Source: a virus
Virus record (IMG/VR): IMGVR_UViG_3300045988_079613
Reading direction: 5' to 3' (one strand)
Length of the DNA stretch: 64,000 nucleotides
Part shown: positions 1,373 to 59,191 of the stretch, one piece after another
Layout of the letters: each line of letters opens with the position of its first letter
Numbering within the stretch: the stretch's first letter is position 1
Translations under genes and position numbers: made by a program
The notes under the pieces: model-generated
Told to the model about the DNA's origin: nothing
What the model saw: only the letters and a program-made list of their open reading frames with translations
The model's database searches: none

Positions 1373-1423
1373 TGATACTATTTTATTCAATACTTATTTA
1401 TAAACTTACTAAATTCTTACAAT

Positions 1424-14200: not shown

Positions 14201-17200
14201 AGATTATTAACTAAATCTAGAAAGTCATTCTTAATATCTTCAAACAATTTTATATTTTCAGGAGTACGTTTGCCTTTTAATATTAAATTAAGACCAGAAT
14301 CTATTCTATTTATTAATTTAGTTATTTCTGCTAAAGCTTTAGAATTTATAACAGATCTGTTCTTACTATCTGTAGTAATCATAGTAGACAGCATAAAATT
14401 CTGCGACCATTGGGAAGGAAGTCTAGCTATTTTTCTTAAGTTATCACTGTCTTGTACTTCCCAAGTTCTTTTTCCTAATTCAGGATTAACATTTGCTGTA
14501 GATTTAATATCAATAGTATCCATACTATTCTTAGCACTCTGTATAGTAGTTAACAACTAAGTAATAGTATTTTCAGGAAGTGGATATTCAGGATTATCTA
14601 TATAGTCTCTGAGAGTAGCAAAGAACGGATCTGATTTCGCTAATCTTCTTACTTTTGATAACAAATCGTTCCAGTCATTAGAAGACCATAAATTCTCTAA
14701 TATTTTATTCCAAGTAATATCAAATGGTTGTACTACATCCATATCAAAGATAGGATCTTTAATAGTATCTGTAATCTTTCCATCCTCTGTGAGAATAAAT
14801 TTGCTCTTAGGAATAGAATAGAAGAACAACTTAGCATTAAATGCTACATTGGCTTTTTTACTTATTTCATATGAATTTCTATCCCATATATTATCATAAG
14901 TATCTCCAGGATCTTTAAGCATCTATTCAGCAACTTCTGTCTCTTCTCTTTCAATACTCTTAATACCTAATTCTTGTAAGAAAGCTCTAATTTGTTTAGC
15001 AAATATTTCTTTATTCTTTAATACATCTTCTACTATTTGTTTATTAGTAAGATTTTCATCATATACTCCATAATCATAGTTATACTGTATTATATTAAAT
15101 ACGTCATCTAACTTCAAATTACGTATGTCATCCATAGTACGAATATTCAAAGTAGCAAGAGCTGTACTACTCAATGATTCTATAATATTGTACATAGTAG
15201 ATGCATTAGTTATATGCGGTGTAGACTTTTGTTGAACATCTGATATACCAGGAGCATAATAATACATGCCTTCTGGGTGTCTTTTAGCAAATTCTGATAG
15301 TATTTCCTGTCCGATAAACGGTTTACTATTTTTAAATTTACCAGATCTTATAGCTTGGAACAATGTCTGCTATGCATTAAGAGGTCTATTACGGAAAGAT
15401 GTAACAAGATTCCACAAAGCTTTGAAGAATTTTTTCATCCTATATATAGGGGAAATATTAGATTCATTTATCATATAGGTTCTGAATTCCTCTGCTAATA
15501 CTTCTTCCATCTGATCTTTAGTGTACCCTTTATACTCAGGATGAGCTTTTATATAATCCGAATACACCTAATTTCTTTGTTCTTCACTAAGAATTAGTTG
15601 ACTGACATAGTGAAATGCTTCGTGATATTCTATGCCCTATCCAGCCTATTCAGACAAAACTATCTATGGATTAAATTCTTTGAATATTCTATTAAAAGAT
15701 ACTTTCATTAGACCATATACTTCTGGAGCATCAGCCATTCTCATAACAGCTCCAGTAACCAGTACATTGTCAATATCTAAACCTAATTTATCTTTTAACC
15801 ATTTTCTAGCTTTCTATTCATCAAACTTACCTCTCCTTTTTGTAGTAGAATAAATACCTGAACTCTTCTTCAGTTTAGCTACAATTGGATTATGACTTGG
15901 CAACATTACAGTAGTACCATCCTCCTTAAGGATATATTCCCATCTTGGTTTAGGAGTAAGCCCCATGGATAATGCTTCATCTTTAGATAGAAGTTTGTCT
16001 TTAGAAGATGGCTTACTAGCTGGAGCTATCGCTTCTTGTTTTACTTCAGTATCTTGTGTACTTTCAGTAGGTACATTATCCTTTCTAGGAGTTTCTGTAG
16101 TAGTAGGTCCAGTTATAGTAGGAGTAACTGGAGTAGGATCTCCTACTTCTTGTGCTCCATCCGCGTATATAAAAGGATCTTTAAATGCCTGTTCTCCTAC
16201 ACTAGTTTTTATTACTTGATGATTAATCATCCAAGACATTAAAGTAGGTGCTTCTTCGTGAGCTCTAACTACTTCTCCTTTATCGTTCTTGGTAAGTCCT
16301 AGATCCTACATAGTGAATATCAGATCATCACAGTTTAGTACTCTATAATAATCTGTTTTATATTCATTCATATACTGTATAGCATGTTCTACAATGCTAT
16401 CTGGAATAGGATCTTGCATCATTTGTTTGTCAGTATTCCAGTGTATATTATTAGATATATCTCTAATAGTTTGCCAAGCTTCTGCTTCTGAAAATACAGG
16501 TTGACCCTTAGCATCTTTTACTTTAAGATACTTAGTAGTATAGAATCCTTCAGGAGTTCTACTTCCATACATCAAAAAGGTTTCTCCTTTTTCGTTCTAG
16601 AAAGAATGTAAAGTCTTTCTAACATAGAATGATAACTTTTCTACACGAGAGTCACCCAGAGTAATAGTAGATGGTCCATGATTACATAAGATATTCAATA
16701 TATCTTTGTATACCTATTGATTACTTATTGGCAATGTACCGGTAACTAGTCTAAATACTAATTCAGCACTGGTAAGAGGTATACGTTTGCCATTATCATC
16801 ATATTTAGCTTTACCATTAGGAGTATAAGATGTAACAAGGGTGCTAGATCCTCCTGGTATGAAATGTCTTTTCTCAGATAGCATAATTGGAGCACTAACT
16901 CTCTAAGATGGAGTATTTGCTACTTTTGGAATTATGTATAATTTACCAGCATATCCTGTTCCCTAAGCACTTGTCTTAGTAGAACCATCAAACTATACTA
17001 TAGTAAATGCATCTGCCGGATCAAGAGGAAAAGGACCTTTACCGTAACCAAATTCTACTTCTCCAGACAATATTTGGTCACTCATTTCATATGGATCAGC
17101 ACTAAGTCCGAATTCAGGTACACTTGTTAATGATCTGTATATAGGATTATTACCTTCCTATTGGCTGTTTATAGAACCATTACTTTGTCGTAAATTTACT

Positions 17201-20200
17201 GGAACAATACCATTTTGAGGATTAATTGGTAAAGTCACTTCAGCATTACTAAAATAATTAGGAGCGTATTTTCTTATATATTTACCAATTATCTCTCTTC
17301 TAAGTTCTCGTAATTTACGTACTTCCTCATTTTGTTTATCTGTAGGAACACCCCATTTTCTTACCTTAGTTCTAGCTTTATCTGGAGTATACAATGCAGC
17401 ATTATAGATATATTTTTTTCCATCTATATCTTCTTCAATTATCATATGTACAGCAAGTCTATCTGCTGCATCTTTTTCTAACTTTCTAGTTTCTTTAGAA
17501 TCTGTGACTATATAGTATACTTTCTATTTAGATAACCAACCTGGTATAGCTAACTTTTTAGACAATTCAGAACCAGGCATTCTAGTTCCATTGAATTTGA
17601 CATCTACAGATTTACCTTTTACTTGGGTCTATATAGGCATTACTTCTGTATTATCATACGCAAAGAAGAATGTAGAATGGATTCTATTAGTCTCTACTTT
17701 TTTCTTACTGTCTAAACCAGGACTTTTATCACTTTGACCCAATAGTTCTGCAGCTCTAGTAGTAGCTGCCAGATCTACAGAGTCTAGTTCTTCCATAGCA
17801 TTTTGTAAGGCTAGTTGACTATCTTCTATATGAGTTCCTAGAGATGGGTCTTCATTACCTACCCATACATCAGTTCCATCAGAATACACCATATTTGATG
17901 GTTCTTCTATTGTAATAGTTACATCCTATGTATTAGAACCATCAAATGATTCTGCTGTAACAATTACCTTAGTAGGTTCATCAGGCTATTTTGCAGTGGC
18001 TACCTCTATAGGCTAATCTGTTTTCTCTTCTTTATCTTGTTCTTCTACAGTAGGTTGCGGGGATTCATCGGCAACAGTAGATTCAATAACCTATTGTGGG
18101 GTTTGATCCTATGTATCAGGTTCTATACCATCTTCTACAGCGATAGGTTGCCCATCCTCTACTTGCTCTAGTTTTGCTCTTATTGCATCTTCTTGTAGTA
18201 CATCATCTGATACTCTATCTAATTCAGATGCTTCTACAGGAGTATCAGTTTCTACTCTATCCTCTGGAAGTATTCCTGTACTATCTTCCATCAATATCTT
18301 GTTAGGATCCTATTCTAAAGTATCCTCTAATATTCTATCTATATCCTCCTATGTAGATAACTATACCTCATCTACTGGCGGTTGTTCTTGAGTAGAAGAG
18401 TCTACAGAATCTACAGGGGCTTGAGCAGTTGTTCTGTTCTATTCTGTATGTTCTGTAGTAACATTTACTTCATCTGGAGTATCGCTTTTTTCTCTATTTA
18501 CTTGAGGTTTTATTTCAGGTTGGTCTATTATTTTTTCTTGAGTATCGGATTGCTCTTTATCATTAGCTAATTGCTCTGAAGTTTGTTCTCCATCGTTTTC
18601 AGCAGCTCTGTGTCCAGTCTCCTGTTCAATTTCAGTTTTAGCCTATGTTTCTTCTTGAACATCTCTTCTATTATTACTTAAAAATAAAGAATTGGCTAGA
18701 AATCTTTCAGTCTACTCTACATTAGCATCATTCTCCAAAGCACTCCATTGGTCTTGAATAGTTTTATTATAGTAGGCTATTACTTGTTTCCTAGTCGGCT
18801 CTTCATCTGTACTATACTGTTGTTTATATTTCTCAGAGTATTTCTATAGTACATTCTATTTATCTTCATCTGATAAATTGGAATATATAGGTTTACTTTC
18901 TACTAAATATCTATCCTTTGTAGATAGTCTACCTGTAGTATAAGCATTAAGCTATGCATTTAAACTGCTAAGAATACCAGTATTTAATGCATTTATAGCC
19001 ATTTCTTGTTCTAATTCCTGTTTATTTCCGAAATCTGGAGCCTTAGACATTATATGGTCGATCCACTTATCTTTCTATCTTAAACTATTTTGTTCTCCTT
19101 GTAGATCTTTTAGTGAATCGTTTATGTACTTTAACATACCCTCTACACCAGTAATAGATACCTATATTCCATATTCGTCCTTTAACTATTCCAAAGTCTT
19201 CTTTCTAGATGTAAGATCTCTTTTCAGATTAGTAAGAGTGTTTGTCAAGGTTCTAGAACTAACAGCGTTTACTATTGATGATTTAAATTGCTGCTTTGTT
19301 ATTGGTTCTGCATTCTATTTTCTTTGTGCGTTAGCATAAGCTTCATATTCTGAATTTATAAATGAATTAAAATCATTTACATCTTCATTATTTATTATAG
19401 AGTTATTAATGTCACTTATACGTTTATCACTTTCGTTTTTAGCACTTGAAGCATCCTTCTATTTATCATAAAGGCTTACAGTAGTCTATACAAATCTCTC
19501 AAAAAATTTATCTTTTTTACGATCTACACCTATATCTTTTAGATTCTGATCAATAAGCTTATTTCTATAAATAGCAGATACATCTTTTGCAAGACGTATA
19601 TCATCATCAATCATATCATCTGTAACACCTTCTGTTTTATACTTTTTGAAATCTTCTAAACTAGTAGTGAGGCTGTTGATATCTCTACCTTTTCTAGAGT
19701 AATCCAGAAATTGAGCTATTTTAAAGTTATTTTCAGCATTTTCAAACCCCTTAGCAGCTAATGCTTTTACTACATTGTCTCCTTGTAATTGATGTCTGAT
19801 ATCGTTGATATTTGTTAGATTTGCTCCACTTCCCATAAGAGCTCCGATAAATCCTCCAATACCCATTTCTATCTTTAATTGTTCATCGGTGTTATATTTA
19901 TCGTCCCAGTGCATACCTCTATATGCTAAATTAGCTTCTAAAGCTAATCTACCAGCTGTGGCGGCACCTCTAAATATATTATATGTATCTGGTACCTATG
20001 CATTATCAGGAAGATCCTAATACCATCTTCCTATCATTCCTTGCTATCCTTCTTCAGTACTTTCAAACAACCATCTCTTACCTAAAGCTAATGCCATGTC
20101 TGTTCCAGCATCTCTAACATGTTTAGCCTTCATTCTAGTCACAGGACTTTTCATAAGTTTAACTGCGGCTTTATCTATCTTTGAATTAAGTTTAGATAAA

Positions 20201-21732
20201 AGAGCAGCAGTTGTCTTGTTTTTGGTAGCTAAATCTACAGCCTTGTTCATTATAGCTTTGAAACCTATAGATTTATTCAACAGCTTACCACCATAACTTA
20301 AACCTAAGTTTTCAGCATAATCACCTAGAGCTAAAGCGTTATTAGTTTCTTCTATCTGTGTTAAACCTTTGCGAGCATCCTTGGCAAAAGTATTGTAGTT
20401 ATTATCTTTAGTAGGTATATTATATGCCAAACCAAACTACAATGTTTCCATTTCATCCATTTTATCAGCATCGTAACCCATGGCTTTCAAACCAGCAGCA
20501 TAGTCATTCAATACTGTAGATAAATCAAATTTACCATCTGCAGCAGCATTAGCTAATTTTTCAACATAATTAGACATTACTTCTCCTGCAGTTTCTTTAT
20601 GTCTAAAATATCGTGTAAATAAAGAGTTGACAACAGCTTCCCCAGCAGCCCAAGCCAAAGGACCACCACCTAATTTGGTACCATATTTCACACCAAGTGC
20701 GGTAAGCATTTGCCATCCCATTCCCTATAATTCTGATGCACTACTACCTATATGCAACATACCATACTTCCAAGTAGTTGGATCTAAAGCAGATATCTAA
20801 ACTTCTCCACGTTTCTTATCAAGAATAGGATCAATTACTTCAGGATTGTAAAATATTGGCATCGGAACAATTCCAAATAGAGGATCATGTAACCAATGCG
20901 CTGTCTTTAAACTCTATTGTTTCTATTTTAATTCATCATCTTTACTATCATATTCTAACTTAGCATCAGATAATTGCTTTTGTAAATTAGCAGCTTTTAT
21001 ATCTAACTAGCTAACTGTAGTTGGAAATGTATTAGTAAAATCGGGGTTATTCTATTTCCAAGATAAATCAGCATAGTAAGGAGATAATCTTCCTTCCGCT
21101 AGTTGATTCCTTACTGTAGAAGCTTCTATTGTTCTACTTGGTAACAAAGGGTTTACAGACTCTGTTACAGCTCCATAAAATACATTACTTAGATAAGGAT
21201 TGGTCTTAGCTTTCTATTTTATATCTTCTTGTAATTTCAACAACTCTTCAAGTTTCTGTTGTGAGGCTTGAATGAGATCTGTATTCTATGGGTTAGCTTT
21301 TAATTGATTTTGGAGTTGGATATATTCTTTCTAACCCTATATATAATTCTGCGCTTCTTCAATCTCTGGTAACCATTTACCTTCAGTATCCATTAGTTCT
21401 TTCTGTCTAGAAGTAATGTTCAAAGATAAAGCGTCTCTAGTATTTATATTAACTGCCTATTCAGCAAATGTAGTAGTTTTTCCAGATTCTGTAGTAGGCT
21501 CAAATAGTTTCTTACCACCAATAACTACAGAAGAAGCTATAGGATTTAGCAAAAATGCAGATACTTTGTTTATAATACCTAGACTAGTTTCTTGTTTATC
21601 TTCAGAAATGTTAGATTCCTGTTCCTATATAGGAGTGGCATATTCATCATCTATACGTCCGTAATAACCTGTACCGAACTAACTATCATTAGTTCTATTT
21701 ATTACTGATAAAAAATCGTCAGAAAATTTCAT
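8227..21732 (-). CDS. Giant multidomain protein, 4501 aa, with a crAss-type virion RNA polymerase-like DxDxD motif and a zincin HExxH motif
   Basis: Sixteen track ORFs (8671..9153 to 20437..20721) share one frame and abut at TAG (for example 14556/14557 and 14922/14923). My scan of all gaps found only TAG (about 78). ATG at 21730-21732, TAA at 8227-8229. DFDID at 11044-11058, HEAFH at 15610-15624, and acidic or P/T-rich linkers at 15900-16150 and 17900-18700. Confidence 0.7.
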
Positions 21733-33790: not shown

Positions 33791-34639
33791 TTAGCAACCA
33801 CATCCATCGTTGTATCCGAATGCTCCATACGCGCCATAGCAGCAGTTAGGATTCGGAACTACGTATGCAGGAGTAGGACACGGAGTCTTTAATTGAGAAA
33901 CAATATTAGCTGTCTGAGCTTGAGTAAGGGCTGCTGCTTCTAGAGCTGCTTTTTCACTACGCAATGTATCAATCTTGCTTTGCATTTCACGCATTTCAAG
34001 CTGACAGAATTTATCGTTGATTATTTGAGTTTGAGCGTCTATTTTAGCACCCAAAATATTAAATTGAGTATTAGCGTTGCTAGTCAGAGTATTCGTCTGG
34101 TTTACTATAGCTAACTGACTTTCATAACCCTGAGTAGTTATAGCATTACGAATATCGCAGCAGCAAGAAGCCAACTGAGATGCAAGGCTTGCATTACCGC
34201 TCTGGATAGCGTTGATTACTTGTGCACCTGTCAATTTAGTATCACAAGCGATCTGGCTAACACTAGTATTAATAGTGTTCAGTGCATTCTGTACTGCATT
34301 AATATCACAATTCAAAGTATTAGACAAAGTAGCGATAGCTTCTTTGTTACCATTGATTGCTTGCATTAGCAGATTAGTGTTGGCATCAGTATTTAATTGA
34401 GAAGCAAGCTGTGAAGCTTCACCGCTTCTGTTACCGAAGCCATTACCACCCCAACCGCCCCAAACAAAGAACAGTAAGATGATCCAGATCCACCAACAAC
34501 CGTTGCCACCGAAACCTCCATTGTTATTCATCATAGCCATGAGAGCTGCAGGGTCCATACTTTTATTACCATTCTGCATTAATGCAGCTAGACCAGCGTC
34601 AAAACCACGGTCTTGAACAATAATTTTATCTTCTAACAT
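33791..34639 (-). CDS. Membrane-anchored Gln/Asn-rich protein with a Cys-rich C-terminus, TAG-free
   Basis: 282 aa. Hydrophobic WWIWIILLFFVW segment, a long Q/N/A-rich helical region, and a C-terminal NPNCCYGAYGAFGYNDGCGC. Every Gln is CAA or CAG. Visibly GC-richer than its neighbours. Confidence 0.7.
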   Translation of the reverse strand: MLEDKIIVQDRGFDAGLAALMQNGNKSMDPAALMAMMNNNGGFGGNGCWWIWIILLFFVWGGWGGNGFGNRSGEASQLASQLNTDANTNLLMQAINGNKEAIATLSNTLNCDINAVQNALNTINTSVSQIACDTKLTGAQVINAIQSGNASLASQLASCCCDIRNAITTQGYESQLAIVNQTNTLTSNANTQFNILGAKIDAQTQIINDKFCQLEMREMQSKIDTLRSEKAALEAAALTQAQTANIVSQLKTPCPTPAYVVPNPNCCYGAYGAFGYNDGCGC

Positions 34640-34671
34640 AATTGATTTTATTTAGGATTGATTTAATTTGA

Positions 34672-35274
34672 TTAATATCTAATGTAGCGCACAGAACGAC
34701 CACGTTTGAATTCTTCTTCCATAGGAAAGGATTTTTCTCTTTCTCTCTCCTTCTCAAAGTCTCTTTCATCGTATTCTCTGTCGTATTCTCTACGTCTACC
34801 ATATGAAGATCTACCCATTCTACGGTAGTTTCCATAACGTTCCTCTTCGTCATCATCTTCGTACTTGCTGTAATGTCTTTCATAAAGATCTTCTTCAGCG
34901 TTTCTAATCTTATCACACATGACATAAATATAGTAGAACCACATCTTACCTTCATCTATATCTTTGTCACAGATCCAAGCTTTAGCTAATTCTACGAAGA
35001 ACTTCGTATTGTTAGTGCCGGTAATGTTAACAATGACACGATAGTAATCAGAGTATACCATATTCAATGCAACGTACCAATCATATTTGTTTATCTTTTC
35101 ATCTAAACGAATACCATATTGATTAGCTAATGCTGTAGTTTCTTCTAATGACCAATGTTGACCTCTTGTTCCGTCTTCATTTTCCATTTTATTTACAGCT
35201 TTACGAGCATGTTCTTCATTGAAATGAGGACCGTGTTCAGCTTCATAAGCTTTTGTACGGATTATTCTATGCAT
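34672..35274 (-). CDS. Hypothetical protein with an Arg/Glu/Asp/Tyr-rich tail, TAG-free
   Basis: 200 aa, uninterrupted, TAA stop. C-terminal RREYDREYDERDFEKEREREK low-complexity tail. Confidence 0.65.
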   Translation of the reverse strand: MHRIIRTKAYEAEHGPHFNEEHARKAVNKMENEDGTRGQHWSLEETTALANQYGIRLDEKINKYDWYVALNMVYSDYYRVIVNITGTNNTKFFVELAKAWICDKDIDEGKMWFYYIYVMCDKIRNAEEDLYERHYSKYEDDDEEERYGNYRRMGRSSYGRRREYDREYDERDFEKEREREKSFPMEEEFKRGRSVRYIRY

Positions 35275-35309: not shown

Positions 35310-35948
35310 TTATTTGATTTCTATTATTCTGGTATCAGTTACTTTGATAAGTTTATTGGAATTATCTATAGTAAATTTGCGAATTTTATCTTTTTTAAAG
35401 TCAAAGTGAAAGAACCTGGACAGCCACGATTTGTACTAATTACGATACACTTTTTTTTCTTCTATGAACAATGTCTAAGCATTCTTCAAATCTAATGTGA
35501 CTGATAAGATTGAATCTTTTCTACTTACTATGATTGTCGTTAATTTATTGAGTTTTAACTTCTTACTAAAATCTGATTCTTTTGTTTGGATTACTGTTTT
35601 GATTGAATCCTTTACTTCTGTATTGATTACTTGAGCTTGTACCAGGTTCTTATCTTTAACTTTTAATTTCTTTTTGGTTTCATTAAGCTATTCAATTATA
35701 CTGTCTTTACTACATTTTAACTAATCTATAGTAAGCTATAATGTTCTATTAGCCTAATCTTTCTTGTCAAATAGAGATTCATAGTAACTAGTATTATTAA
35801 CTAGCCTAGCTATCTCTGCATCCTTTTTTTTCAGTTGGTTGTACATAAAAAAAGCACTTACCGTTAGAATACATATGAAACTTATGGTAAGTGCTTTGAA
35901 ATTTCCTTTCAACCAATTAACTACTGTGAGTATTGCTGTTATTATCAT
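35310..35948 (-). CDS. N-terminal transmembrane plus coiled-coil protein (i-spanin-like), 212 aa
   Basis: Extends track ORF 35754..35948 through 6 TAG to TAA 35310-35312. TM segment ALTISFICILTVSAFFMY, then a K/E/L-rich helical region. Overlaps the holin 3' end by 32 nt. Confidence 0.5.
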
Positions 35949-36450
35949 TATTGGTATTTTTTAAATCATTAATGTCAATATCTACTCCGAGATATTTCTC
36001 ACCTTTAGATTTGATAACCTTTCCTAAAACTTTTTCTATTACTTTACAAATCTTGCAATCTGGATGTAAATCTTTCATAGATTCAAGCCAAGATATAAAC
36101 TCTGTTCCACATATCATACCAGATATAAACTCTACAGCATGCAAATCTATAGAAGTAACTATACTAGTATCTATTACATGTGCTCCTGCTATCAACAGTA
36201 CAGCCTCAAATAACTTATTTATAGTCTTCCATAATTTGTAGTACTCTATCTACTTATGACCATACTTACGAGAAACTTTATAACCAAGAATTACATCTAC
36301 AATGATAAATAAACATACGCAAACAACAGTTACTGAAATTGGTGTAAAGTAGCTAGTGATTCCCGCTAGTATTCCAGCAGATGTTTTTTGTGCACTGCTG
36401 AACATACTTTTTAATAGTGTCATAACCGGATCTCCTATATTGTGAATCAT
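35917..36450 (-). CDS. Holin (Phage_holin_4_1-like), 177 aa, needs one TAG read-through
   Basis: Track ORFs 36250..36450 and 35917..36195 are co-framed and joined by a single TAG at 36250-36252. The fused protein has TM helices and a VDVILGY..K..G..K...LLIAGAHVID layout typical of that holin family. Confidence 0.6.
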
Positions 36451-36563: not shown

Positions 36564-37571
36564 TTATTCTTTAATATATTCTAATAGCTCTTTATATTTA
36601 GACATTTTATTTAATAAGTTACGTCCATTACAGTATTTAATCCAACCTATATAGCTACATATTTTTTGCTTATACGTATCTTTATCTAGGTTCTATTTTT
36701 TATTTAACTTGTTTATCTTTTTGCAGAATCTCTTTTTTATACGCTTTCTTAATAACGTATGAGTATGAAATACTCTATATCCTACAAAATCTATACCTCT
36801 CGAATCTACCTTAAATATCTACCAATTATCTTTAAAGTTTAACTTTAATTTATTATTAAGATAATCCTGTATGTTATAGAATAAATCTCGTAACTACTAC
36901 TTATCTCCACCTAATATTACAATATCATCTGCATATCTAAAGTAGTATCTAACTTTCTTTTGTTCTTTAATCCAGTGATCTAAATAAGTAAGATATAAAT
37001 TAGCAAAGAACTAGGATAAGTAATTACCAATAGGTACTCCCTAAGCTGATTCTATTATTTCATCTAACAGACTTAATAGTCTTTTGTCTTTTATTTTTTT
37101 CCTTATTATTGTTTTTAATATATCATGATCTATAGAAGAATAGAACTTTCTGATATCTAACTTTAAACAGTATTGCGTATTTATTTCATCCTTTAAAGCA
37201 AATTTAACATCTTTCAAAGCTTTGTGTATACCGCGCTTTCTAATGCAACTATAAGTTCCTTTTATAAATGCAGATACCCATATAGGCTCCATTATATTCA
37301 TAATTGCGTGATGTACAATTCTATCAGGATAGTATGGTAGCTTAAATATTTCTCTTTCTTTTGGTTCATATATTTTGAAAACATAATATTCGGAAGTTTC
37401 GTATTCCCCATTTATTAGTTTTCTTTGTAGATCTAGAAGTAACTTGTCTTTGTTCTTATCAAATAACATTACTTCAGGTCTATGTGATTTCTATCTTCTA
37501 GCTTTTTTATCAGCCTCATATAAGTTATCTAAACTTACTATTTTATCAAATAAATTATTGTATCTTTTCAT
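36564..37571 (-). CDS. Diversity-generating retroelement reverse transcriptase, 335 aa
   Basis: Track ORF 37041..37469 extended through 7 TAG (37491, 37041, 37011, 36897, 36894, 36819, 36693). Motifs PYYPDRIVHHA, GVPIGNYLS[TAG]FFANLYL, YADD (36924-35) and GIDFVGY. ATG at 37569-37571, TAA at 36564-36566. Confidence 0.85.
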
Positions 37572-37700: not shown

Positions 37701-37796
37701 TCAGTGTACTGACATTGGCATTAGCATTGCTAAGTGTATTGTTAGAATTCAAATTGAGCAAACTGGAATTCGTACTATTACTAGTGTTACTGCTTA
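37701..37796 (-). repeat. DGR template repeat (TR)
   Basis: 96 nt, aligned gap-free to 37845-37940 with 71 identities. 23 of the 25 mismatches are at TR positions that are A on the coding (minus) strand. The TR frame is rich in AAC and AAT codons. Confidence 0.85.
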
Positions 37797-37827
37797 ATGA
37801 CAGAGGACAACTTTATCTATATTTAAA

Positions 37828-39069
37828 TTACGGTATATAGATCAACCGAGTACCGACATAGGCACTAGCATTGCCAAGCGTATCGCGAGAACCCAAACCG
37901 AGCCAACCGGAATACGCACTATAACTAGCGCCACCGCCTACAATTAAGGTTCTATTTGAAGTGCTATTATTGGTATAATTATAATCACACCAGTATGTAG
38001 TAGCACTTCCTCCATATGCCTCATCAATTGGTGGAAACAAATCAAATGATTCATTATAAATGAGTCTCTTCTTATAACCATCAGTAGTTACAGTACTACA
38101 TTGTAAGTTATAATCTGAAATGTTAGTCGAACCAAATTTACTTACATCGGTAGTAACATAAACGTCATTTTTCGTAGAAGTTGCATTATAATGTATAAGT
38201 GTGTCTATACAATTTTTCCATACGTGACCGAATGGATTCTCTATTCCTCTGTAAGTAGGAACACTGTAAGTCTTCTGAGTAACAACTCCCTCTGCATCAC
38301 TGCTATCAACAGTAACTGAAGTAATTCCTGTAGAATTACCGTGTTCATCAGTACTACCACAGGGTATGAAATTATATTTAGCTACTCCGTTCACTTGTAT
38401 ACTACCAGTAGTAACACCATCTCCTAGACCTCCCTGATGATAACCTTCTGCAGTTAATTCAGCATTAAATGCTTTTTGAGAATTAGTACAAGCATATTCT
38501 ACTAAATATAGTATAGTAAGTACCTTGTGTGCATTATAAGTATATATATTCCAATTAGTACTACCGGCCTTATTAGCCCTAGCTCTTTGTTGCATTGTGG
38601 TTCTTGCAATATTAACTGAAGGAGTAATATTATCACCTTTAATAGACTTATATACATCTTCAACATTAGATGCTTCGTATGCTGAAATATAGAACTTCTC
38701 TACATGCTCTACTCCAGGTATCATGGGATCTGCAGGATACAAATTTAGATATACGGTATTGTCATCCTTCATACACTTATACCAAAACTCAGGTATTTCT
38801 ACCATAGTATTTAAAGTCATATCTCTATCAGAACCATCTTCATATTTAGTTCTATCGTCTGCTTTAAGATATTTAACCACACCATCAGCAGTAAGTGTAC
38901 ATGATTTCATTTTAGATTGAATCGGTAATTCTTTATGCCAAGGCATATAACCAATTCTAGTCAAAGTAGTACTTTGAGGTTCTATAGGGAAACTAACCCC
39001 ATAATAATTAGTAAATACGTTAGCGTTTCCTAAACGGACAGCTACAATATTTTTATCTCCAAGTTCCAT
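37828..39069 (-). CDS. DGR target: receptor-binding tail fibre tip protein with a C-terminal variable (C-type-lectin-fold-like) region, TAG-free
   Basis: 413 aa, uninterrupted. The VR covers the last ~35 codons. The C-terminal pattern GGG..S.W....S......N...VG.RL matches Mtd/CLec-type DGR variable proteins. Confidence 0.8.
   Translation of the reverse strand: MELGDKNIVAVRLGNANVFTNYYGVSFPIEPQSTTLTRIGYMPWHKELPIQSKMKSCTLTADGVVKYLKADDRTKYEDGSDRDMTLNTMVEIPEFWYKCMKDDNTVYLNLYPADPMIPGVEHVEKFYISAYEASNVEDVYKSIKGDNITPSVNIARTTMQQRARANKAGSTNWNIYTYNAHKVLTILYLVEYACTNSQKAFNAELTAEGYHQGGLGDGVTTGSIQVNGVAKYNFIPCGSTDEHGNSTGITSVTVDSSDAEGVVTQKTYSVPTYRGIENPFGHVWKNCIDTLIHYNATSTKNDVYVTTDVSKFGSTNISDYNLQCSTVTTDGYKKRLIYNESFDLFPPIDEAYGGSATTYWCDYNYTNNSTSNRTLIVGGGASYSAYSGWLGLGSRDTLGNASAYVGTRLIYIP
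37845..37940 (-). repeat. DGR variable repeat (VR) at the 3' end of the target gene
   Basis: Cognate of the TR, offset +144. Encodes GGGASYSAYSGWLGLGSRDTLGNASAYVGTRL. Confidence 0.85.
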
Positions 39070-39071
39070 AA

Positions 39072-39578
39072 TTATTCGTAAATTAAGTATAATGTTTTAG
39101 AATTTTTATTAGGTAATGCGTTATATTCTGCTTGAGTCATAGTAACTATGTTGTTAACAACCTCTGATGATATACAATTAGTTAAATCTACAGTTTCTGA
39201 TAATTTATCCCATTCTGCTGGATCAGCATTAATGCATACATAATTAGCTCCTGTATCATCCACGTTGTACACATCTCCGACTACAGATACCTCAGGTAAA
39301 GAATCAAAGTCTGCTACAGTACCTTTTACTCTATATACAGATGCTACCTTAGCGTCTACCTATTCCTTATTATAGGTATCAGACTTATCTGCTTTGTTAT
39401 CAATCTTCTCTTCTAGTTGTTCTATTACTTCTGTATCTCCACTGATAGGAGCCCAACCAGAATTCTTATAAACTTTAATTACAGCACCTGTTGGATCTTC
39501 TTTTAGATCAATCCAGTAATTTACTTCCTTAGGATCTGGAGCTGTAACACTGGCTTTAAAATTTATGTTTTCTTTCAT
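39072..39578 (-). CDS. Tail fibre N-terminal adaptor protein, 168 aa
   Basis: Track ORFs 39360..39578 and 39072..39272 are co-framed and joined by a TAG at 39360. The N-terminal motif PDPKEVNYWIDLKEDPTG..IKVY is shared with the fibre at 43557..44894. Its TAA is 2 nt before the DGR target ATG. Confidence 0.6.
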
Positions 39579-39587
39579 TGTTATATG

Positions 39588-40142
39588 TTATTTACTTAAG
39601 TTTATAATTAACTTATCTGGATATCCAACAGTATAGTCATAATTGTTAATTTGTTCTTTACTGTTTAGTTTTTTAATGTTGGCTATATGTTGTTGAGTAG
39701 TATTATAACATTCAGATGCGTATAACTCTATATTATCCATTATACTGTCAAATTGGTTTAATGGTATGATAGTCTTATTATTATTGTACCATACGGTTAT
39801 ATCTGCTTCTCCATTAGCTTTTTTGATATTGGCTAATTCTCTTATAGATAATCTCTCCGTTTTATTAAGCCAAATGGAAGCTCCGTCAATAATTACAGAA
39901 TTAACAATATCTGATTTATCATACCGCTCTATATTCTATATAGTTATCTTCTTTACTTCGTCTATAGTAGCTACGTAATCTACAGCTATAGGATACCCAT
40001 TCTCATCTTCAGATATTAATTTACCTTGAGATTGAGCAAATAATAATTCCTACCAATATTCTTCTGTTATTTCTACCCCTCCGTCTACCGGTTCACAATA
40101 AAACCCTTGTTTCCAATATATTCTATTACTTATATTCTTCAT
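39588..40142 (-). CDS. Tail-fibre chaperone/assembly-like protein (DUF4376-like), 184 aa
   Basis: Absent from the track because of 2 TAG. ATG at 40140-40142 in a TAATATG junction. The functional call rests on weak resemblance and its position after a fibre gene. Confidence 0.45.
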
Positions 40143-40143
40143 A

Positions 40144-43100
40144 TTATCTTTTCCATTTACCTATTGCTATATAACTTACTGGTTGTGTAGTATATGCTGC
40201 CGAAGTACTCATATCAGCTTCTGTCGCTCTATATGTGAAACCAGCCGCGTAAACCTATGTAACTACTGCACTATACATATTACGATAAGTATTATTATTG
40301 GTTTTGAATGAGACCATTACAGTCCATGGAACAGCGTAAAAACCAATAGGAAACGTTACAGTTCTTAACTCTGTAGAAGCACTAGGTGTATGTGTACCCC
40401 AGCATATCTATAGTCCGTTTATAAATCTCTAATATCCATCAGTATTAAATCTACTGCTTTCGTTCCAATTTTTCATACTAACAACAGCCTGATCGTTAGT
40501 AGTAAATGTGCCACTATCGTAGTCTTCAACATTAAATACTTCAGATATACAATTTCCTTGATCGTCTATAATGGAAGCATATACTGCAACCCCATTAGAC
40601 AAACCTCCGCTGTCTAAATCAGAGTTTGCTATAACCATTGGAAATGTACCGTAGTCACCTTGAGGGTTACCATAATATAAGAATTGATACTCGTTTAAAT
40701 CTACATCATTATTTATTTTTTTTAGTATAGCAACATCTGCACTATTGAGAGTGACATAAGTACTTCTATCTGTCTTAAATAAATCATTAGTAGTAAATAT
40801 TGCTACTTTACTATTAGCAGGTTCACCTTGAGGTCCTTGTGGTCCAACATCACCTTTATCTCCTTTATCACCTTTGTCCCCCTTCGGCCCAGTAGGACCA
40901 GTGTCTCCTTTGTTTCCTTTCGGACCCTATTTTCCTTGCAATCCTGTATGACCTTGAGGTATACCAAATCTGAATGTTCTGGCACTAGCTGTACCACCCA
41001 TTGTTACTGTTGCTTCTGAAGTATAAGGTAGAGTAACAGCAGATACCTCTGTAATAGTTGCTGCAGTACCGGTATCACCTTTAGGTCCCTGAGCCCCTGT
41101 ATCACCCTTGGGTCCAGCTTCACCTCTAGAAGGTTTACCGGTATTAGTATCTCCTAAATACCAGTTACCATTGGAACCAATAGTTGGTGTTATACCGTTC
41201 TCACCTGGATCCCCTTTATCTCCCTTAGGCCCCGATGCAGATGCTGGTATGTTAATTGTTTTAGCTGCAGATCCATCCCAAGTTCCTGTTACAGCTCCAG
41301 TAAATGTCAATGCATATGGAGTTGGCAGTTTATCCGCTGTAGTAGCTATTTTCTTCCAAGTGTTCCATCCGGCATCATTTATCGCGTCTCTGAAAAATAG
41401 ATGATCTCTGTCCCCATGTGATAAAGCTAATTGCAACGTAAAATTGCCTGTATTGCCAGGTAATATAGAAGACGAACTAGCTATTTGTACTATTTCTCCA
41501 TATAGTCCACTAATTGGAATAGTACCTTCATTATCTGGAGCATATGCTCCAAAGAACGAACCAGTCACTTGATCTATATTATTAACATTTAGCAATCTAG
41601 TAAAATCAGTAACTGATTTAGTAGTTCCGTTACCAAGCAACATATGAGAACCATCTGAACCAGATACTACATAACCGGTTGCCCATAATCTAGATGAAGA
41701 GTCTCTCTATGCTACAGAATTAGCAACAGAAGATGAGGAGAATGTAGGTTTATTAGCTATATTACCCCAAGTTAAATCATTGTAATAGGCTAAAGCTTTC
41801 CATTCTGCATCTGCCAATGTTCTAGTAGTCCCATTGAAATCACTTCTAACATACATTCTTACTACCCTTATAGTACTCTATCTTAGATCTGGAATATAAA
41901 ACTAAGTGATACTAGTACCGCTAGTAAAACTTAAGAACTACCCATAATCATATGATCCGGTTCCTAAATCATCTGCATTAGTATATCCTATAGCTTCTAT
42001 GTAACACGTATCAGCGTAATTTTTACTTACTGGACCAACGCTCTTAGCATACTTATTAGAATCCTTACCATCAAGCAATTGAGCATTAAGATTAGTAACC
42101 AAATTAGTATTAGTCATAGTACCACCAGATAAACTAAGTTTACCAGATAATCCACTATTCAATTCTGTCTTAGTAGCTAACGCACTAGTATCGGGTATAG
42201 TAGGTTTATTAGTTAGATCATTATAGTTACCAGAGAATTCAATAATCTCAGACCATGCAGCATTTCTTCTACCATATTTTTTATTATCCTTTGGTGCTTC
42301 ACCTACTTCTCCAGCTCCTGCTGTAATTTCAATATTACCTGCTCCAACTAAAGATTCCCCATTAACCGTCTTTATGTTAGTACCACTTACCAGGGTGTTT
42401 TGTTTCTACGAATCTAGTGCGTATATTTGACCTACTAGGTTATTCTCTACCTCTGTAGCTCTAGCAGTTTCTGCTTCTATTGATCCTATCAACTGCTAAT
42501 TAGATTCTTCAAACTCTGATCTAACAGAATTAATAGCTGCAGCTACACCTGTTAATTTTACACCATTAGGGCCTACTGTCAAATATGAATCTGATGTAGA
42601 GTCTATAACTACATTAAATTTATTAGACGCAGCAAGTTGTAACCCATTTCCAGCAGTATATACATCTACTAAATCACCTATGTTAACCCTTACTATAGAA
42701 TCTCCATCTTCTGCTACAAAAGTGAATACTAAACTAGTAGTATCTGCATCATATACAACTCCTTTAAGAAATCTATCTTTAGGTATACTAATTTCTCCAG
42801 CATTAATAGAATCTACCATTAATGTGTAATGCAAACTATTCTACTAATCCTAGATCAATTCTACTGATGCTACTTTACTATTTTGGAGATTAGTTATTAA
42901 AGTGTCTTGTGCGTCATTACGATTCTTCTCAGTAGTAATTTTATTAGTATTAGCATTTTCTGCATTAGTAGCTCTGGTAATTTCATCAGTAATTCTTTGT
43001 CCTAAAGCATTATCTGCGGCTTTGTATGCAGTCTCAACTTCATCTATTCTATCAGAAAGACCACTATCACTACCAATTGATTCTTTCAATTCTGTAATAG

Positions 43101-43542
43101 ATTCTTTAACATAGCTATCTAAGGAATATACAGAACCAATTATTTGATTCTCTGCAGTTTGTGCTCTACTTATTTCTGTATTAATAGCATCAGTATTCTT
43201 TGACTCAGCAGCTTTAGCTCTATCTGATTCATCTTTAATAGCTTTAGTATTAGTTTCTTCAGCCTATTTAGCTCTAGCTATTTCATTATTTATTTTTTCA
43301 AGATTATCTGCTTCTGCCTGTTGAGCTCTTGCTGTTTCTGCAGACACACTATTCTATATGTCTCTTTCTGCTTGAGTAGCTCTAGCAATCTCTTCATCGA
43401 GTTCTGTTTTTAAGCTATTCGTACTCTGGTTAATATCAGATTGGTACTTCTATAAATCTTTATCCCAAGTTTGATCGGTATTGACTATCTTAGGATCTGT
43501 AGTATCATTAACCAGGGTACCATATATTTTAATGTTTGCCAT
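40144..43542 (-). CDS. Tail fibre with coiled-coil, SGNYNDLTNKPT motif and collagen-like G-X-Y tracts, 1132 aa
   Basis: Track ORFs 40429..40638, 40927..41643, 41938..42162, 42496..42834 and 42850..43089 are co-framed. About 16 in-frame TAG. E-x-x-RA-x-x-AE heptad-like repeats lie N-terminally. G-X-Y runs at 40822-40950 and 41070-41240. Confidence 0.7.
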
Positions 43543-43556
43543 AATATATTTTATTC

Positions 43557-44894
43557 TTATCCAATTGTAAAATCAAACGTTCCAGCATTAAGCTACCCAC
43601 TTGTACGATAACATTTATATGTACCCTTGCTATCTACAGTTACTGAAATAGGATTTTCCATGGGAACTCCAAATCCAGAAGATGTCACTTTAGATATATT
43701 AAAATTAGATGGTACGCATAACCATACGTAATCACCTTGATTTACATTCATAGAATATGTCCCATTTGGTGAACTCTTGATAGGCTACTTAGTAAAGCCC
43801 GTTATATCTGTAGAAGTTAAACTGGTTTTTGGAGAATGACCAAAAAACATAGGGTAGTATGTACGAACTGTTGCAGTAGCTGATTTTTGTACTTCATTAC
43901 TTATTATATCTACTCTATAGACAACACTATCGCTAGTAGTATCAAGATTATCTGTAATGCCATTAAGGTTATCTACTGGAGTATTATGTATAACTACAGA
44001 ATCTCTTTTAAGAGTTACACTCTATGGAATAAAAGGTTCATTGTTAAATAAGAATCTACCAGCCATTTTAATAGAAGTAGAAACTCCTTTTTCGATTATA
44101 GTGGGAGAAACTGAAAATCCTGAAATAACTGTAAATTGATTATACAGTACTTCCCACACTTCTTCGTGTCTACCACCTGCGATCTATCCATCTAGAACCT
44201 TAATATTATTTATTAAATCTTTAGAATTACTAAGATAATTAGTATCTGATAGATCTGGTAGATTTCCATCACTAGTAATACCTATAATTCTATTGGTATT
44301 TGATAATTGTGCTCTGGTTGCGTAAGTATTCTAAGCCTCTTCTTTAGTAAGATACGGGGACAAATCTATAGGGGCTTGATATTCTCCCATCAATTCCCAA
44401 TGATTATTCACATATATGTACTCTTTCCATATATTACCTTCCTCTCCGTCTTCATCTAATACCAAATATATTTTGGTAGGATCAATATCTTCAGTAGGTA
44501 ATTCAAGTACTACCTTATATAAAGTTAAGTCTACTATGCAAGATATTACATTATCAGATATATTGATACCAGCACCGGCTACTAACTTATCTTGTTTACC
44601 TTGTTTTAATGACTCTATATCTTGATCTACAATAGCTATTTGACCCTCAATAATCTTAATCTTCTCATCTACACGTTCTTCGTATGATTCTAATTGCTAT
44701 TGTACATATTTTTTAATCTTCTCTTCAAATTCTGGTAGTGTACCTTCTAATACTCGAAGAGTTTCCCAATACCCTTCCGCATTCCAAGATTTAATACTAC
44801 CTCCTAGAGGATCAGTAGCCAGATCTACCCAATACATTACTTCATCTGGATTAGGCTAAATATCTGTTGCTCTAAAGTTTACAAATCTTACCAT
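43557..44894 (-). CDS. Tail fibre protein, 445 aa
   Basis: Absent from the track because of 7 TAG. ATG at 44892-44894, TAA at 43557-43559. The N-terminal PNPDEVMYWVDLATDPLG..IKSW adaptor motif is followed by a coiled coil. Confidence 0.55.
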
Positions 44895-45085: not shown

Positions 45086-46900
45086 TTATACTTGCTCCCA
45101 AGTAACACTCCCATCCTCGTTGAAGATAATTCTCTTACCTGCTATCTCAACTACTGTATGAGAAGATGAACCTATTATGATCTGATTACTATCGGATGCT
45201 TTAACATTGTACCCTATAACAATAGAATTTTCTATCACTGCCGGAGTGCTCTTAGAATGCAGTTTAGCTAAATGTCCTATACAGATATTATTCTTACCGT
45301 CGACATCATAATTGTTCATTGCATCCATTCCTATAGCAACATTTCCTTCACCTTCTATATACAATGCAGCATTAGCCCCGACAGCAACACATTTAGTGTT
45401 ATTACGCACACCAGCAGATGCCCCGACAGCAACACATTTTGATTTAGCAAAATGTGCAGAACCACCACTTAATGTTCTATGCCCTATAGCTACGTTATCG
45501 ACGAAATCATTGCTATTTGTCTGCCCTAACGCATTTGTCCCAATTGCGACATTGCGTTCTCCTTGCCCTCTAACCTCTCCCAATGCAGCCTTACCTATTG
45601 CTACATTATCCTCTCCTTTTGGTATATACCACGCCGCATCAGAACCTATTGCTATATTTCTATCTCCCTCAATTAGGCGCGTTAGGGGGAATGTTCCTAT
45701 ACCGATATTCCTTGCTCCATATTTTAAGGAGCTTAACGATCTCTGACCTATTGCAATGTTGCGGGATCCATTCTGGTTCTTTGCAAGGGCATCGGTTGCA
45801 CCTATTGCAATGTTCCACCAGCCTGTAATGTTATCTGTCATTGTGCCTCCTTCAACATTTTCGTAGTGCTTATTACTATCAGAATCAAGTTCTACCTCTA
45901 TTGATGCCTCATCCTCAGAAACAATTTTACGAAGTTCCACTCCATACACACTTCCATCATATGCTGATGATGCGGTAATTTTAAGACTACCACCGTCCGA
46001 TATCATACCAACATAGAATTTACCTAACGTTCCATTATAGATATCACATAATCCCCCCTCACCGATACTAACACAAACATCCTTTTCGTATGTGCCGACT
46101 TTAGAATAATTGAATATTGCTACATATTTTTCACCCTCAATAGTAGCATGATCAAAAATAAGAGTATCTGTATTGCCTATAGCATGCGTATAAACCCCTT
46201 CTGTGTATTGCCAGTTATCTCCATTGCCAACAATTGAACTGATAAGGTTATCGCCAAGATATAATTTTTTACTTACTTTTCTACGAATGCAAGTTTTAAT
46301 ATCTTCGGATTGAATATCTTCGTCAAGAGTCACAATCCCATCTGGTCCAACTCTGAGAAATTTCCCTGCGTTGTTTATTCCTTGCTGTTTATCAACCTTG
46401 CCATTTATTAATCCAGATTCTGATTTGTATTCAATATTGGTAGGTTCATAGCTTACTCCAGATGAATTAGCGCAATAGACATATAGGTAATTACAATCAG
46501 AAGGTAATACTATCTCAAATGGAAAGTAGTGAGTCTCAATGCTTGTATATCCGTCACAAGCATTAACAATTGAACCGGATACGAAATCGCAATCTTTTAC
46601 AGGCAACACGGAGGCTCCATGAGCCGTATCTATCGGTGTAATCATCAGATTTCTTCCCGCCACAACAGGGATAACCTTGTGCTTTGTCAATCCATAATTT
46701 CCATTAGTTCTGAAAACTAAATCACTACTTGTAATTAATCCACTCCGATAATCATACAAATTCAAGTCGATTGCTTGGGCTTCAATACCAGTAATTTTAT
46801 CTACCTTTGAAAATATTTCCTCAAAGTTCCCATCAATCGCAGCAGCTAAAGTACCCCATGATTTTTCAGAGTCTTTTGCTATATCAAATATCTTTTCCAT
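45086..46900 (-). CDS. Tail spike/fibre with YadA-head/Hep_Hag-like N-x-AIG repeats, TAG-free
   Basis: 604 aa, uninterrupted. At least ten repeats of the form (R/D)N(I/V)AIG..A. at 45300-45760. C-terminal IIFNEDGSVTWEQV. Visibly GC-richer than its neighbours. Confidence 0.75.
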   Translation of the reverse strand: MEKIFDIAKDSEKSWGTLAAAIDGNFEEIFSKVDKITGIEAQAIDLNLYDYRSGLITSSDLVFRTNGNYGLTKHKVIPVVAGRNLMITPIDTAHGASVLPVKDCDFVSGSIVNACDGYTSIETHYFPFEIVLPSDCNYLYVYCANSSGVSYEPTNIEYKSESGLINGKVDKQQGINNAGKFLRVGPDGIVTLDEDIQSEDIKTCIRRKVSKKLYLGDNLISSIVGNGDNWQYTEGVYTHAIGNTDTLIFDHATIEGEKYVAIFNYSKVGTYEKDVCVSIGEGGLCDIYNGTLGKFYVGMISDGGSLKITASSAYDGSVYGVELRKIVSEDEASIEVELDSDSNKHYENVEGGTMTDNITGWWNIAIGATDALAKNQNGSRNIAIGQRSLSSLKYGARNIGIGTFPLTRLIEGDRNIAIGSDAAWYIPKGEDNVAIGKAALGEVRGQGERNVAIGTNALGQTNSNDFVDNVAIGHRTLSGGSAHFAKSKCVAVGASAGVRNNTKCVAVGANAALYIEGEGNVAIGMDAMNNYDVDGKNNICIGHLAKLHSKSTPAVIENSIVIGYNVKASDSNQIIIGSSSHTVVEIAGKRIIFNEDGSVTWEQV

Positions 46901-58177: not shown

Positions 58178-59191
58178 TTAAATATTAGATTGTTCAGTTA
58201 GTTGTTCTTTATATTTCCAGATATACTTAGCGTTATTCCACGCTCTTTTGTTATTGGGGTCTATAGGATTTTGTAATTGCCTTTGAATTCCTCTTCTATC
58301 ACAGTTGGATATTCTACTAGCTTCAGAGATAGAAACATACTCCGTTATCAAATTATTATTTTTATCATATTGACAAATAGATTTAGCTACCTTTAACCCA
58401 TTTTCTATAGCAATTTGTCTTTGCTTTTCTGTAACTTTTCTATTTTTTCTTGATTCTAAGTCTGCTTTTCTACAAACTTCAGAGATAGTTGGTTTCCAAT
58501 TAGGATCTTTAGCAAATAAACTAGAAGGGACAGTAGTTGGTACGTCAGGATAATTCTCTTTATACACCCATATATATGGGTTTACTTTAGATTCTGTAAT
58601 ATTCTTTCGCTTCAATGCATTCGACAAAGTAGTAGTATGTATTCCTGTTAGTCTAGAAGCCTCGTTTACTCCTGAAAATTCTTGAATAAAATTACCTTCT
58701 TTAGTATATTGTAATACTGCTTTTTTTCTAGTACTACCAATCTGGCCGGATTCCCAATAAGCTTTTCTTGCATCAGTTACTACTTTACCAGCTTCTGACA
58801 GCTTTAACCTAGTAGTTTCTGTTATTTCTCTTCCTAAAGCTTTCTGACGAATTTTATCTTTAGTTTCTTCAGTATGTTGTCTACCGAAAGTTCCATCACC
58901 CCCTTCAGTCATATTATAACCAAATTCGTCTTGTATAGAATTATATTTAGAAATATAATATTGTTCTTTTTCTGTGAGTTCTTCCCAATTGTTGCAGAAA
59001 TCCACGAGTTCTATTGAAAAGCTCTCTTTACCGTACTTTCGTATAGCGTTGTGTAATTTAAAAGGACAGCCGTGCTCGGCATTGTAGAGGTGTTCTTTCC
59101 ACCGAGCACTTACTCCTTTACTTGTAATTCCTATATATACTTTATTATTAATCTTGTTAGTTATTTTATAAACATCGTAAGAATGCATCAT
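58178..59191 (-). CDS. GIY-YIG homing endonuclease (I-TevI-like, free-standing), TAG-free
   Basis: YKITNKINNKVYIGITSKGVSARWKEH GIY-YIG motif, plus two NUMOD1/IENR-like repeats (NEASRLTGIHTTTLSNAL and SEASRISNCDRRGIQRQL). 337 aa. Lies immediately downstream of the capsid gene. Confidence 0.8.
   Translation of the reverse strand: MMHSYDVYKITNKINNKVYIGITSKGVSARWKEHLYNAEHGCPFKLHNAIRKYGKESFSIELVDFCNNWEELTEKEQYYISKYNSIQDEFGYNMTEGGDGTFGRQHTEETKDKIRQKALGREITETTRLKLSEAGKVVTDARKAYWESGQIGSTRKKAVLQYTKEGNFIQEFSGVNEASRLTGIHTTTLSNALKRKNITESKVNPYIWVYKENYPDVPTTVPSSLFAKDPNWKPTISEVCRKADLESRKNRKVTEKQRQIAIENGLKVAKSICQYDKNNNLITEYVSISEASRISNCDRRGIQRQLQNPIDPNNKRAWNNAKYIWKYKEQLTEQSNI

Follow-up and report, generated by a model that had tools for sequence, protein, structure and literature searches.

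TAG codon use in a DGR reverse transcriptase and its target gene within the recoded late block of a crAss-like phage

The closest described relative of the DGR analysed here is found in crAssphage cr56_1 (NC_055890.1; Buchavirus faecalis, Suoliviridae, Loutivirinae), the record of which already annotates a reverse transcriptase (RT, gp50; YP_010112308.1) and a tail protein (gp51) at full length. The plus-strand early and replication genes of cr56_1 are almost free of TAG whilst the minus-strand late block is TAG-rich, with TAG making up about a third of the Gln codons in late genes and no gene ending in TAG. A suppressor tRNA with a CUA anticodon, tRNA(cta), is located at 92120-92199 between a TAG-free block of small genes and the late block, just upstream of genes for a homing endonuclease and TerL. 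Gating of late genes by stop-codon recoding has been described for recoded phages, crAss-like ones included (Borges et al., 10.1101/2021.08.26.457843; Nat Microbiol 2022 per PMC12386605), with a TAG preference that depends on gene family and a bias in lysis genes and a tail tube gene; that study makes no mention of DGRs or reverse transcriptases. For structural proteins of crAss-like phages, metaproteomics has confirmed the reading of TAG as Gln (PMC9523058). Recoded crAss-like phages with a DGR in the late or structural block, and with amber codons in its RT gene, have also been published (PMC12386605). The phages concerned differ in belonging to another family with genomes of about 155-190 kb, the amber codons were treated as an annotation obstacle, and TAG use was not compared between RT and target. 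Avd was absent from most of the Zeta crAss-like DGRs in the same work, indicating that Avd is not universal in DGRs. The original prediction for the present locus had taken a link between DGR activity and stop-codon recoding to be unreported; amber codons in crAss-like DGR RT genes were in fact already in print and can be seen in the RefSeq annotation of this phage, although as far as our searches show the literature searched holds no comparison of TAG use between a DGR RT and its target. The prototype DGR is that of Bordetella phage BPP-1, consisting of Brt, Avd, a template repeat (TR) and the target Mtd.

The window, by which we mean the whole stretch of 64,000 nucleotides that was analysed, is 94.8% identical to cr56_1. 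Under the standard code the summed length of open reading frames of at least 100 aa is 8,845 aa, as against 21,533 aa with TAG as a sense codon, and reading either TGA or TAA as sense gave little gain in summed length. Plus-strand genes at 524-3267 (encoding an AAA ATPase, a phosphoesterase and a PDDEXK nuclease) are TAG-free, and 31 of the 39 late-block genes (approximately 80%), including the portal, terminase and tail genes, need TAG read-through. TAG is a third Gln codon throughout the late block. No tRNA was detected in the 64-kb window, which ends before the region matching the cr56_1 tRNA locus. The genome resembles the recoded late-gene timing system in its early genes in standard code, its structural and lysis genes with TAG as Gln and its lysis genes as the most TAG-biased, and the cr56_1 reference also encodes a phage suppressor tRNA; it differs from the studies of that system, in which DGRs are unmentioned, in that an RT simply lies within the recoded block. 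Two further minus-strand genes were observed in the late block. A single ORF of 4,487 codons at 8269-21732 contains 78 in-frame TAG and would fall into dozens of pieces under the standard code; its counterpart in cr56_1 is labelled 'nuclear pore complex protein-like' and the product is probably a giant crAss-like virion protein. A TAG-free GIY-YIG/NUMOD1 homing endonuclease gene at 58178-59191 lies directly downstream of the major capsid gene and encodes 337 aa, compared with 224 aa at the same place in cr56_1, where the late-block homing endonucleases are all TAG-free or TAG-poor.

The features of the DGR locus are collected in Table 1. Translation bore out the description of the RT gene in the original prediction, namely 335 sense codons with 7 in-frame TAG, the first at codon 27 and one in the SQ motif, and a product of 26 residues under standard decoding. 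The gene ends in TAA, and apart from the TAG codons the frame contains no TAA, TGA or frameshift within its 335 aa. The translated protein matched Pfam RVT_1 (E = 8e-17), the PHROG 1423 reverse transcriptase (E = 6e-125) and, at full length (residues 2-324), Brt of the Bordetella phage (PDB 8ub7; E = 1e-54). Both TAG187 and TAG251 align with Gln in the solved Brt structure, and the GxxxSQ motif of the DGR clade is present as IGNYLSQ with TAG187 providing the Q. Public protein sets searched by BLASTP hold a full-length protein 100% identical to this RT, and a search of a large protein database returned near-identical copies only. The RT frame is kept in more than 80 independent assemblies, and cr56_1 as well as 11 independent IMG/VR assemblies from this clade likewise encode RTs with 5-7 TAG. 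This recurrence excludes sequencing artefacts as the source of the TAG codons; an artefactual origin, coupled with recent transfer of the whole cassette, had been named in advance as something that would undermine the original prediction. The genes for a holin and a lysis-regulator-like protein that follow the RT gene place it at the junction of fibre and lysis genes in the late block.

Table 1. Coordinates in the window of the features of the DGR locus
Feature	Position	Strand	Evidence and remarks
Lysis-regulator-like gene	35310-35948	-	After holin gene; 6 TAG in 212 codons
Holin gene	35917..36450	-	Directly downstream of RT; 1 TAG; Pfam Phage_holin_4_1 (E = 2e-7) and cr56_1 annotation
DGR reverse transcriptase (RT) gene	36564..37571	-	Translation; profile and structure-sequence matches
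RT TAG codons 225 + 226, 251, 293	36899-36894, 36821-36819, 36695-36693	-	
RT TAG codons 27, 177, 187	37493-37491, 37043-37041, 37013-37011	-	
Template repeat (TR)	37702..37796	-	Non-coding, ~95 nt, inside the 256-nt target-RT spacer
AT-rich inverted repeat	37815..37842	-	8-bp stem, 12-nt loop; spans target stop, just 3' of VR
DGR target gene (tail protein / fibre tip)	37828..39069	-	413 codons
Variable repeat (VR)	37846..37940	-	C-terminal ~32 residues of target (GGGASYSAYSGWLGLGSRDTLGNASAYVGTR)

The target gene upstream of the RT proved to be TAG-free, as had been stated, its Gln residues being specified by 9 standard codons (7 CAA and 2 CAG). The product matched the PHROG 5302 'tail protein' (E = 5e-77), RefSeq describes the cr56_1 orthologue as 'similar to sulfatase, major tropism determinant', and a sequence search of the PDB with the target gave no match. 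These two labels are the pointers to a putative C-type-lectin-like fold on which the VR would be displayed. Ungapped alignment of TR and VR over approximately 95 nt gave 22 mismatches at TR adenines and one elsewhere. The VR ends 16 nt before the target stop codon, with the TR 144 nt and the RT 256 nt downstream on the same strand. The VR thus stands at the 3' end of a coding target with TR and RT close by, and since the TR of about 95 nt between the two genes matches the end of the target with mismatches at TR adenines, the cassette is a canonical DGR. The in-frame codons of the TR are of the types AAY, AGY and ACN, from which adenine mutagenesis cannot give TAG, TAA or TGA. No free-standing ORF of at least 40 aa other than the RT, and hence no candidate Avd, was found between the target and holin genes, and no terminator or terminator-like site was found separating target from RT. 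In DGRs an IMH element and a hairpin for target recognition are placed at the 3' end of the VR. At this position the inverted repeat listed in Table 1 is predicted by DNA folding to form a stem, with an energy no better than that of shuffled sequences (z = -0.7).

Compared with BPP-1, the cassette shares an RT that is homologous at full length (37% identity by tblastn) with the GxxxSQ motif, adenine-specific differences between TR and VR, and a VR at the 3' end of a receptor-binding tail gene. It differs in lacking Avd, in having the TR between target and RT, in a target without sequence match to Mtd, and in its residence in a virulent-type crAss-like podovirus that reads TAG as Gln. With cr56_1 the locus shares 94.8% nucleotide identity over RT, TR and target, a 335-aa RT containing TAG, a TAG-free target and the same order of tail fibre genes, target, TR, RT, holin and lysis regulator. 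The cr56_1 RT has 5 TAG rather than 7, its VR differs at TR-adenine positions, its TR is of another sequence type, and the window contains extra or replaced genes nearby at 33791-35274 and 45086-46900. The first of these regions, downstream of the lysis cassette on the minus strand, comprises two consistently TAG-poor genes (33791-34639 and 34672-35274), one encoding a Gly/Gln/Cys-rich protein of 282 aa (PHROG 16490), in which a hydrophobic stretch is predicted and the C-terminus is rich in Cys, and the other a DUF7841 protein of 200 aa; homologues of the pair occur in all four related clades described below, and the matching position in cr56_1 is a short gap without annotation. The second region (45086-46900, minus strand) is a TAG-free gene of 604 aa amongst TAG-rich fibre genes, with tail-spike-like NIAIG-type repeats (PHROG 4636), in the position of which cr56_1 has a different and shorter gene, gp57, with 2 TAG. 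To all appearances a receptor-binding gene has been exchanged here recently, perhaps for one of standard-code origin.

To judge from sequence comparisons, the DGR is active in the population and transfer from TR to VR continued in genomes whose RTs contain 5-7 TAG. The comparison covered 13 genomes of the window's clade (clade A), which carry six TR sequence types. At non-adenine sites each VR differed from its own TR by 0-2 mismatches and from the other TR types by 6-12. In the same genomes 21 of 28 TR-adenine columns showed 3-4 alleles in the VR, with 36 of 42 non-adenine columns invariant; the TR is conserved in this clade and the VR variable. Such transfer is only possible in these genomes with read-through, which indicates that the TAG codons of the RT are read. 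The requirement for TAG as a sense codon, as put forward in the original prediction, is accordingly supported by the alignment of TAG187 and TAG251 with Gln in Brt, by alternation of TAG with CAA and CAG in relatives and by the continued copying of TR into VR. In one clade-A locus (among L002-L012), TAG occurs at RT alignment column 316 (W310 in the window), where TGG (Trp) is otherwise invariant, which is either a replacement of Trp by Gln or a mutation that truly inactivates the RT of this one genome.

To follow TAG use in relatives, at least 80 IMG/VR loci with RTs 61-99% identical to that of the window were compared. These fall into four clades (A-D, Loutivirinae), with the exception of the most distant (L081, 61%), which belongs with a standard-code outgroup. 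The RTs of the four clades contain 3-9 TAG, apart from one truncated RT ORF (L037), and the homologous targets contain 0 in clade A and 0-2, 1 and 1-6 in clades B, C and D, respectively. Among the 10 distinct sequences of each gene in the window's clade the RT has a mean of 6.7 TAG and the target 0. As a share of Gln codons, TAG accounts for 0.57, 0.47, 0.23 and 0.68 in the RTs of the four clades and for 0, 0.21, 0.09 and 0.12 in the targets, and the neighbouring lysis-regulator gene is as TAG-rich as the RT. All 24 TAG-bearing columns of the RT alignment vary among or within clades, with TAG alternating with CAA, CAG or codons for Lys, Glu or Tyr. Codon 27 is TAG, TAT or CAA within the window's clade alone, and the Gln codon of the SQ motif is TAG in clade A, CAA (26) or TAG (2) in clade B, CAA in clade C and TAG (31) or CAG (3) in clade D. 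The TAG codons of the RT are therefore ordinary, rapidly turning-over Gln codons. A wider scan that included TAG-recoded contigs of 175-195 kb, candidate Zeta crAss-like phages by their size, in which an ungapped diagonal scan recovered VR/TR pairs of 95-133 nt, brought the number of recoded lineages to 13. A TAG-bearing target was present in all of these except the window's clade and one other genome. Targets in the 175-195 kb contigs had 0-13 TAG, and those of two other recoded Suoliviridae, cr6_1 and cr7_1, had 11 and 14, six of them in each case inside the module homologous to the window's target; the corresponding VR/TR pairs had 25:0 and 28:0 adenine to non-adenine mismatches. A survey of RT against target had been proposed with the original prediction, and it returned RTs richer in TAG than their targets in 10 lineages and poorer in 3. 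In cr7_1 (L166, 8895-8966 and 9618-13239) the cassette is preceded by an annotated tRNA-Gln, approximately 650 nt upstream of the DGR target with a dUTPase gene in between, so that the cassette adjoins the tRNA rather than lying deep in the late block; this tRNA-Gln may be a suppressor.

Whether the contrast between RT and target exceeds what late genes show in general was assessed against the remaining genes of the block. The rate of about one TAG per 60-70 codons given in the original prediction for neighbouring fibre genes fits two of them (40144-43542, 16 TAG in 1132 codons; 43557-44894, 7 in 445) but not three other neighbours (45086-46900, 0 in 604; 39072-39578, 1 in 168; 39588-40142, 2 in 184). 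At the pooled late-gene rate the target would appear depleted, with a Poisson probability of 0.002 for 0 TAG in 413 codons and a binomial probability of 0.024 for 0 of 9 Gln codons. There is strong over-dispersion in TAG use from gene to gene, however, and a beta-binomial model gives P = 0.12 for the target. Seven of the 26 late-block genes of at least 200 aa are TAG-free, including the GIY-YIG homing endonuclease gene, the tail-spike-like gene and several with no assigned function. In the RT, TAG makes up 0.58 of Gln codons compared with 0.34 in the pooled genes (P = 0.07-0.23; beta-binomial P = 0.22), and the value for the adjacent lysis-regulator gene is 0.60. Neither RT nor target is an outlier among the late genes.

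The TAG share of Gln codons in the late genes of the window (3851-63656) falls with the GC content of codon positions 1+2 (GC12; rho = -0.56, p = 4.5e-4), a covariate that gave a likelihood-ratio chi-square of 27. By AT-richness the RT ranks third in the set of 39 late genes, and the target belongs with the GC-richer genes. A logistic GC12 model fitted without either gene predicted a TAG share of 0.61 for the RT (0.58 observed) and 0.26 for the target (0/9 observed, P = 0.068). Five further Suoliviridae loci showed this relation too (rho -0.60 to -0.75), with low target values predicted well; it was not seen in the 175-195 kb contigs, for which 5-12 background genes per locus were available. 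No correlation of TAG use with GC3, Lys+Glu content or CAG share was found among the late genes of the window. In most of the large genes about one Gln codon in two is either TAG or CAG, as would be seen if TAG chiefly took the place of CAG. The contrast in TAG use between RT and target is mostly a by-product of gene composition, and its prediction from the AT-richness of codon positions 1+2, together with the 1-14 TAG in homologous targets of other recoded relatives, speaks against a TAG-free target by design.

We therefore read the locus as an ordinary active DGR in the late block of a Buchavirus, a crAss-like phage using code 15 (TAG to Gln), with a probability of roughly 0.8. The RT would be translated with the other late proteins once tRNA(CUA) is available, this tRNA being seen in the 95%-identical reference. 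It would then copy the TR RNA, presumably a segment of the late transcript from which the RT itself is translated, making errors specific to adenines, and the VR in the terminal part of the fibre-tip gene would be replaced by the resulting cDNA. AT-rich and Lys/Glu-rich genes would come to use TAG for most of their Gln codons and GC-richer structural genes only rarely, with lineage-specific drift added. Against a purely compositional account, the target family makes little use of TAG in each of the four Loutivirinae clades and the RT is the richer of the two in 10 of the 13 lineages, so that weak selection may add to the effect of composition. The zero of the target is also somewhat below its prediction (P = 0.07).

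Selection of this kind might act on protein dosage. Were TAG read inefficiently in competition with release factor 1, TAG-rich genes would be expressed late and sparingly and selection on expression would set TAG density, allowing a TAG-poor major capsid protein and fibre tip to be made efficiently. This would fit the major capsid protein gene (59273-60742), where only 1 of 13 Gln codons is TAG, beside shares of about 0.6 in the RT and lysis regulator, as well as the stability of family-level TAG bias across clades, the excess in the RT in most lineages and the TAG bias of lysis genes reported by Borges et al. in another crAss-like lineage. However, TAG use is without correlation to GC3, there are many TAG in the genes for the portal, the terminase and the very large virion proteins, and GC12 explains the pattern with no recourse to dosage, although composition and dosage are hard to separate. 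We regard dosage tuning as unlikely. A related proposal is that selection, in addition to composition, keeps the DGR RTs of recoded crAss-like phages denser in TAG than their targets. We consider this quite unlikely; if true, inefficient read-through would keep a mutagenic RT scarce and strictly late.

The original prediction went further, inferring a translational gate specific to the DGR in which a TAG-loaded RT awaits the suppressor tRNA, so that retrohoming is controlled by TAG suppression, and a TAG-free target can be expressed at any time. In the window the RT does need read-through and the target does not, and the contrast recurs in the window's clade and, more weakly, in the sister clades. 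Nevertheless, none of the TAG positions of the RT is conserved, not even codon 27 or the Gln of the SQ motif. Homologous targets contain TAG in clades B, C and D and most heavily in cr6_1 and cr7_1, both with clean VR/TR pairs, three lineages have the target richer in TAG than the RT, and composition alone predicts the contrast. Dependence on suppression is common to about four-fifths of the late block and is not specific to the DGR. Since nearly all other virion genes, among them those for portal, terminase and tail, depend on it too, a fibre tip 'expressed regardless' would lack a virion to which it could be added. A DGR-specific gate is thus very unlikely, and largely refuted already by the TAG-rich homologous targets.

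Recent horizontal acquisition of the target or of the whole cassette from a standard-code phage, with TAG not yet gained, would also account for a TAG-free gene. The nearest outgroup cassettes are indeed in standard-code phages of approximately 30-55 kb, with homologous RT (52-65%) and target (32-38%) and no evident internal TAG, which indicates that TAG was gained after the cassette had come to reside in a recoded genome, and the tail-spike-like gene at 45086-46900, which differs from the gene in cr56_1, indicates that replacements happen here. Transfer of the cassette is at odds with the 7 TAG in the RT of that same cassette, and the target has a GC3 (0.21) that late-block genes typically show. 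Recent import of the target on its own was rejected, as target and RT identities fall together across the clades (76, 63, 45 and 35% for the target; 80, 77, 68 and 61% for the RT), consistent with co-divergence. Acquisition as an explanation for the missing TAG is therefore extremely unlikely. An RT pseudogene, or TAG codons arising as assembly errors, as a frame broken seven times under the standard code might suggest, is of negligible probability and is refuted by the intact 335-aa frame, its recurrence in the assemblies with an identical public protein, and recent VR diversification by TR-to-VR transfer.

In the reading of the locus as an ordinary DGR of a recoded late block, the feature is real but ordinary and essentially already known. 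An apparently 'broken' RT beside an intact target is what any pair of late genes can look like in a code-15 phage, and DGR finders and gene callers that apply the standard code miss such RTs, as likewise pointed out previously (PMC12386605). Two by-products of the analysis are that the TAG share of Gln codons tracks the AT-richness of codon positions 1+2 and that in a related lineage in-frame TAG is made by the DGR itself. The TR of cr6-like phages (L164, cr6_1 1806-1904; L168-L214; L244) contains an in-frame AAA codon. At the matching VR codon 2 of 46 genomes have TAG and none has TAA or TGA, and in 45 of the 46 this codon ends in G. In these phages adenine mutagenesis yields in-frame TAG that is viable only under code 15. 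This constitutes a second link between DGRs and recoding, in which recoding widens the codon space open to adenine mutagenesis.
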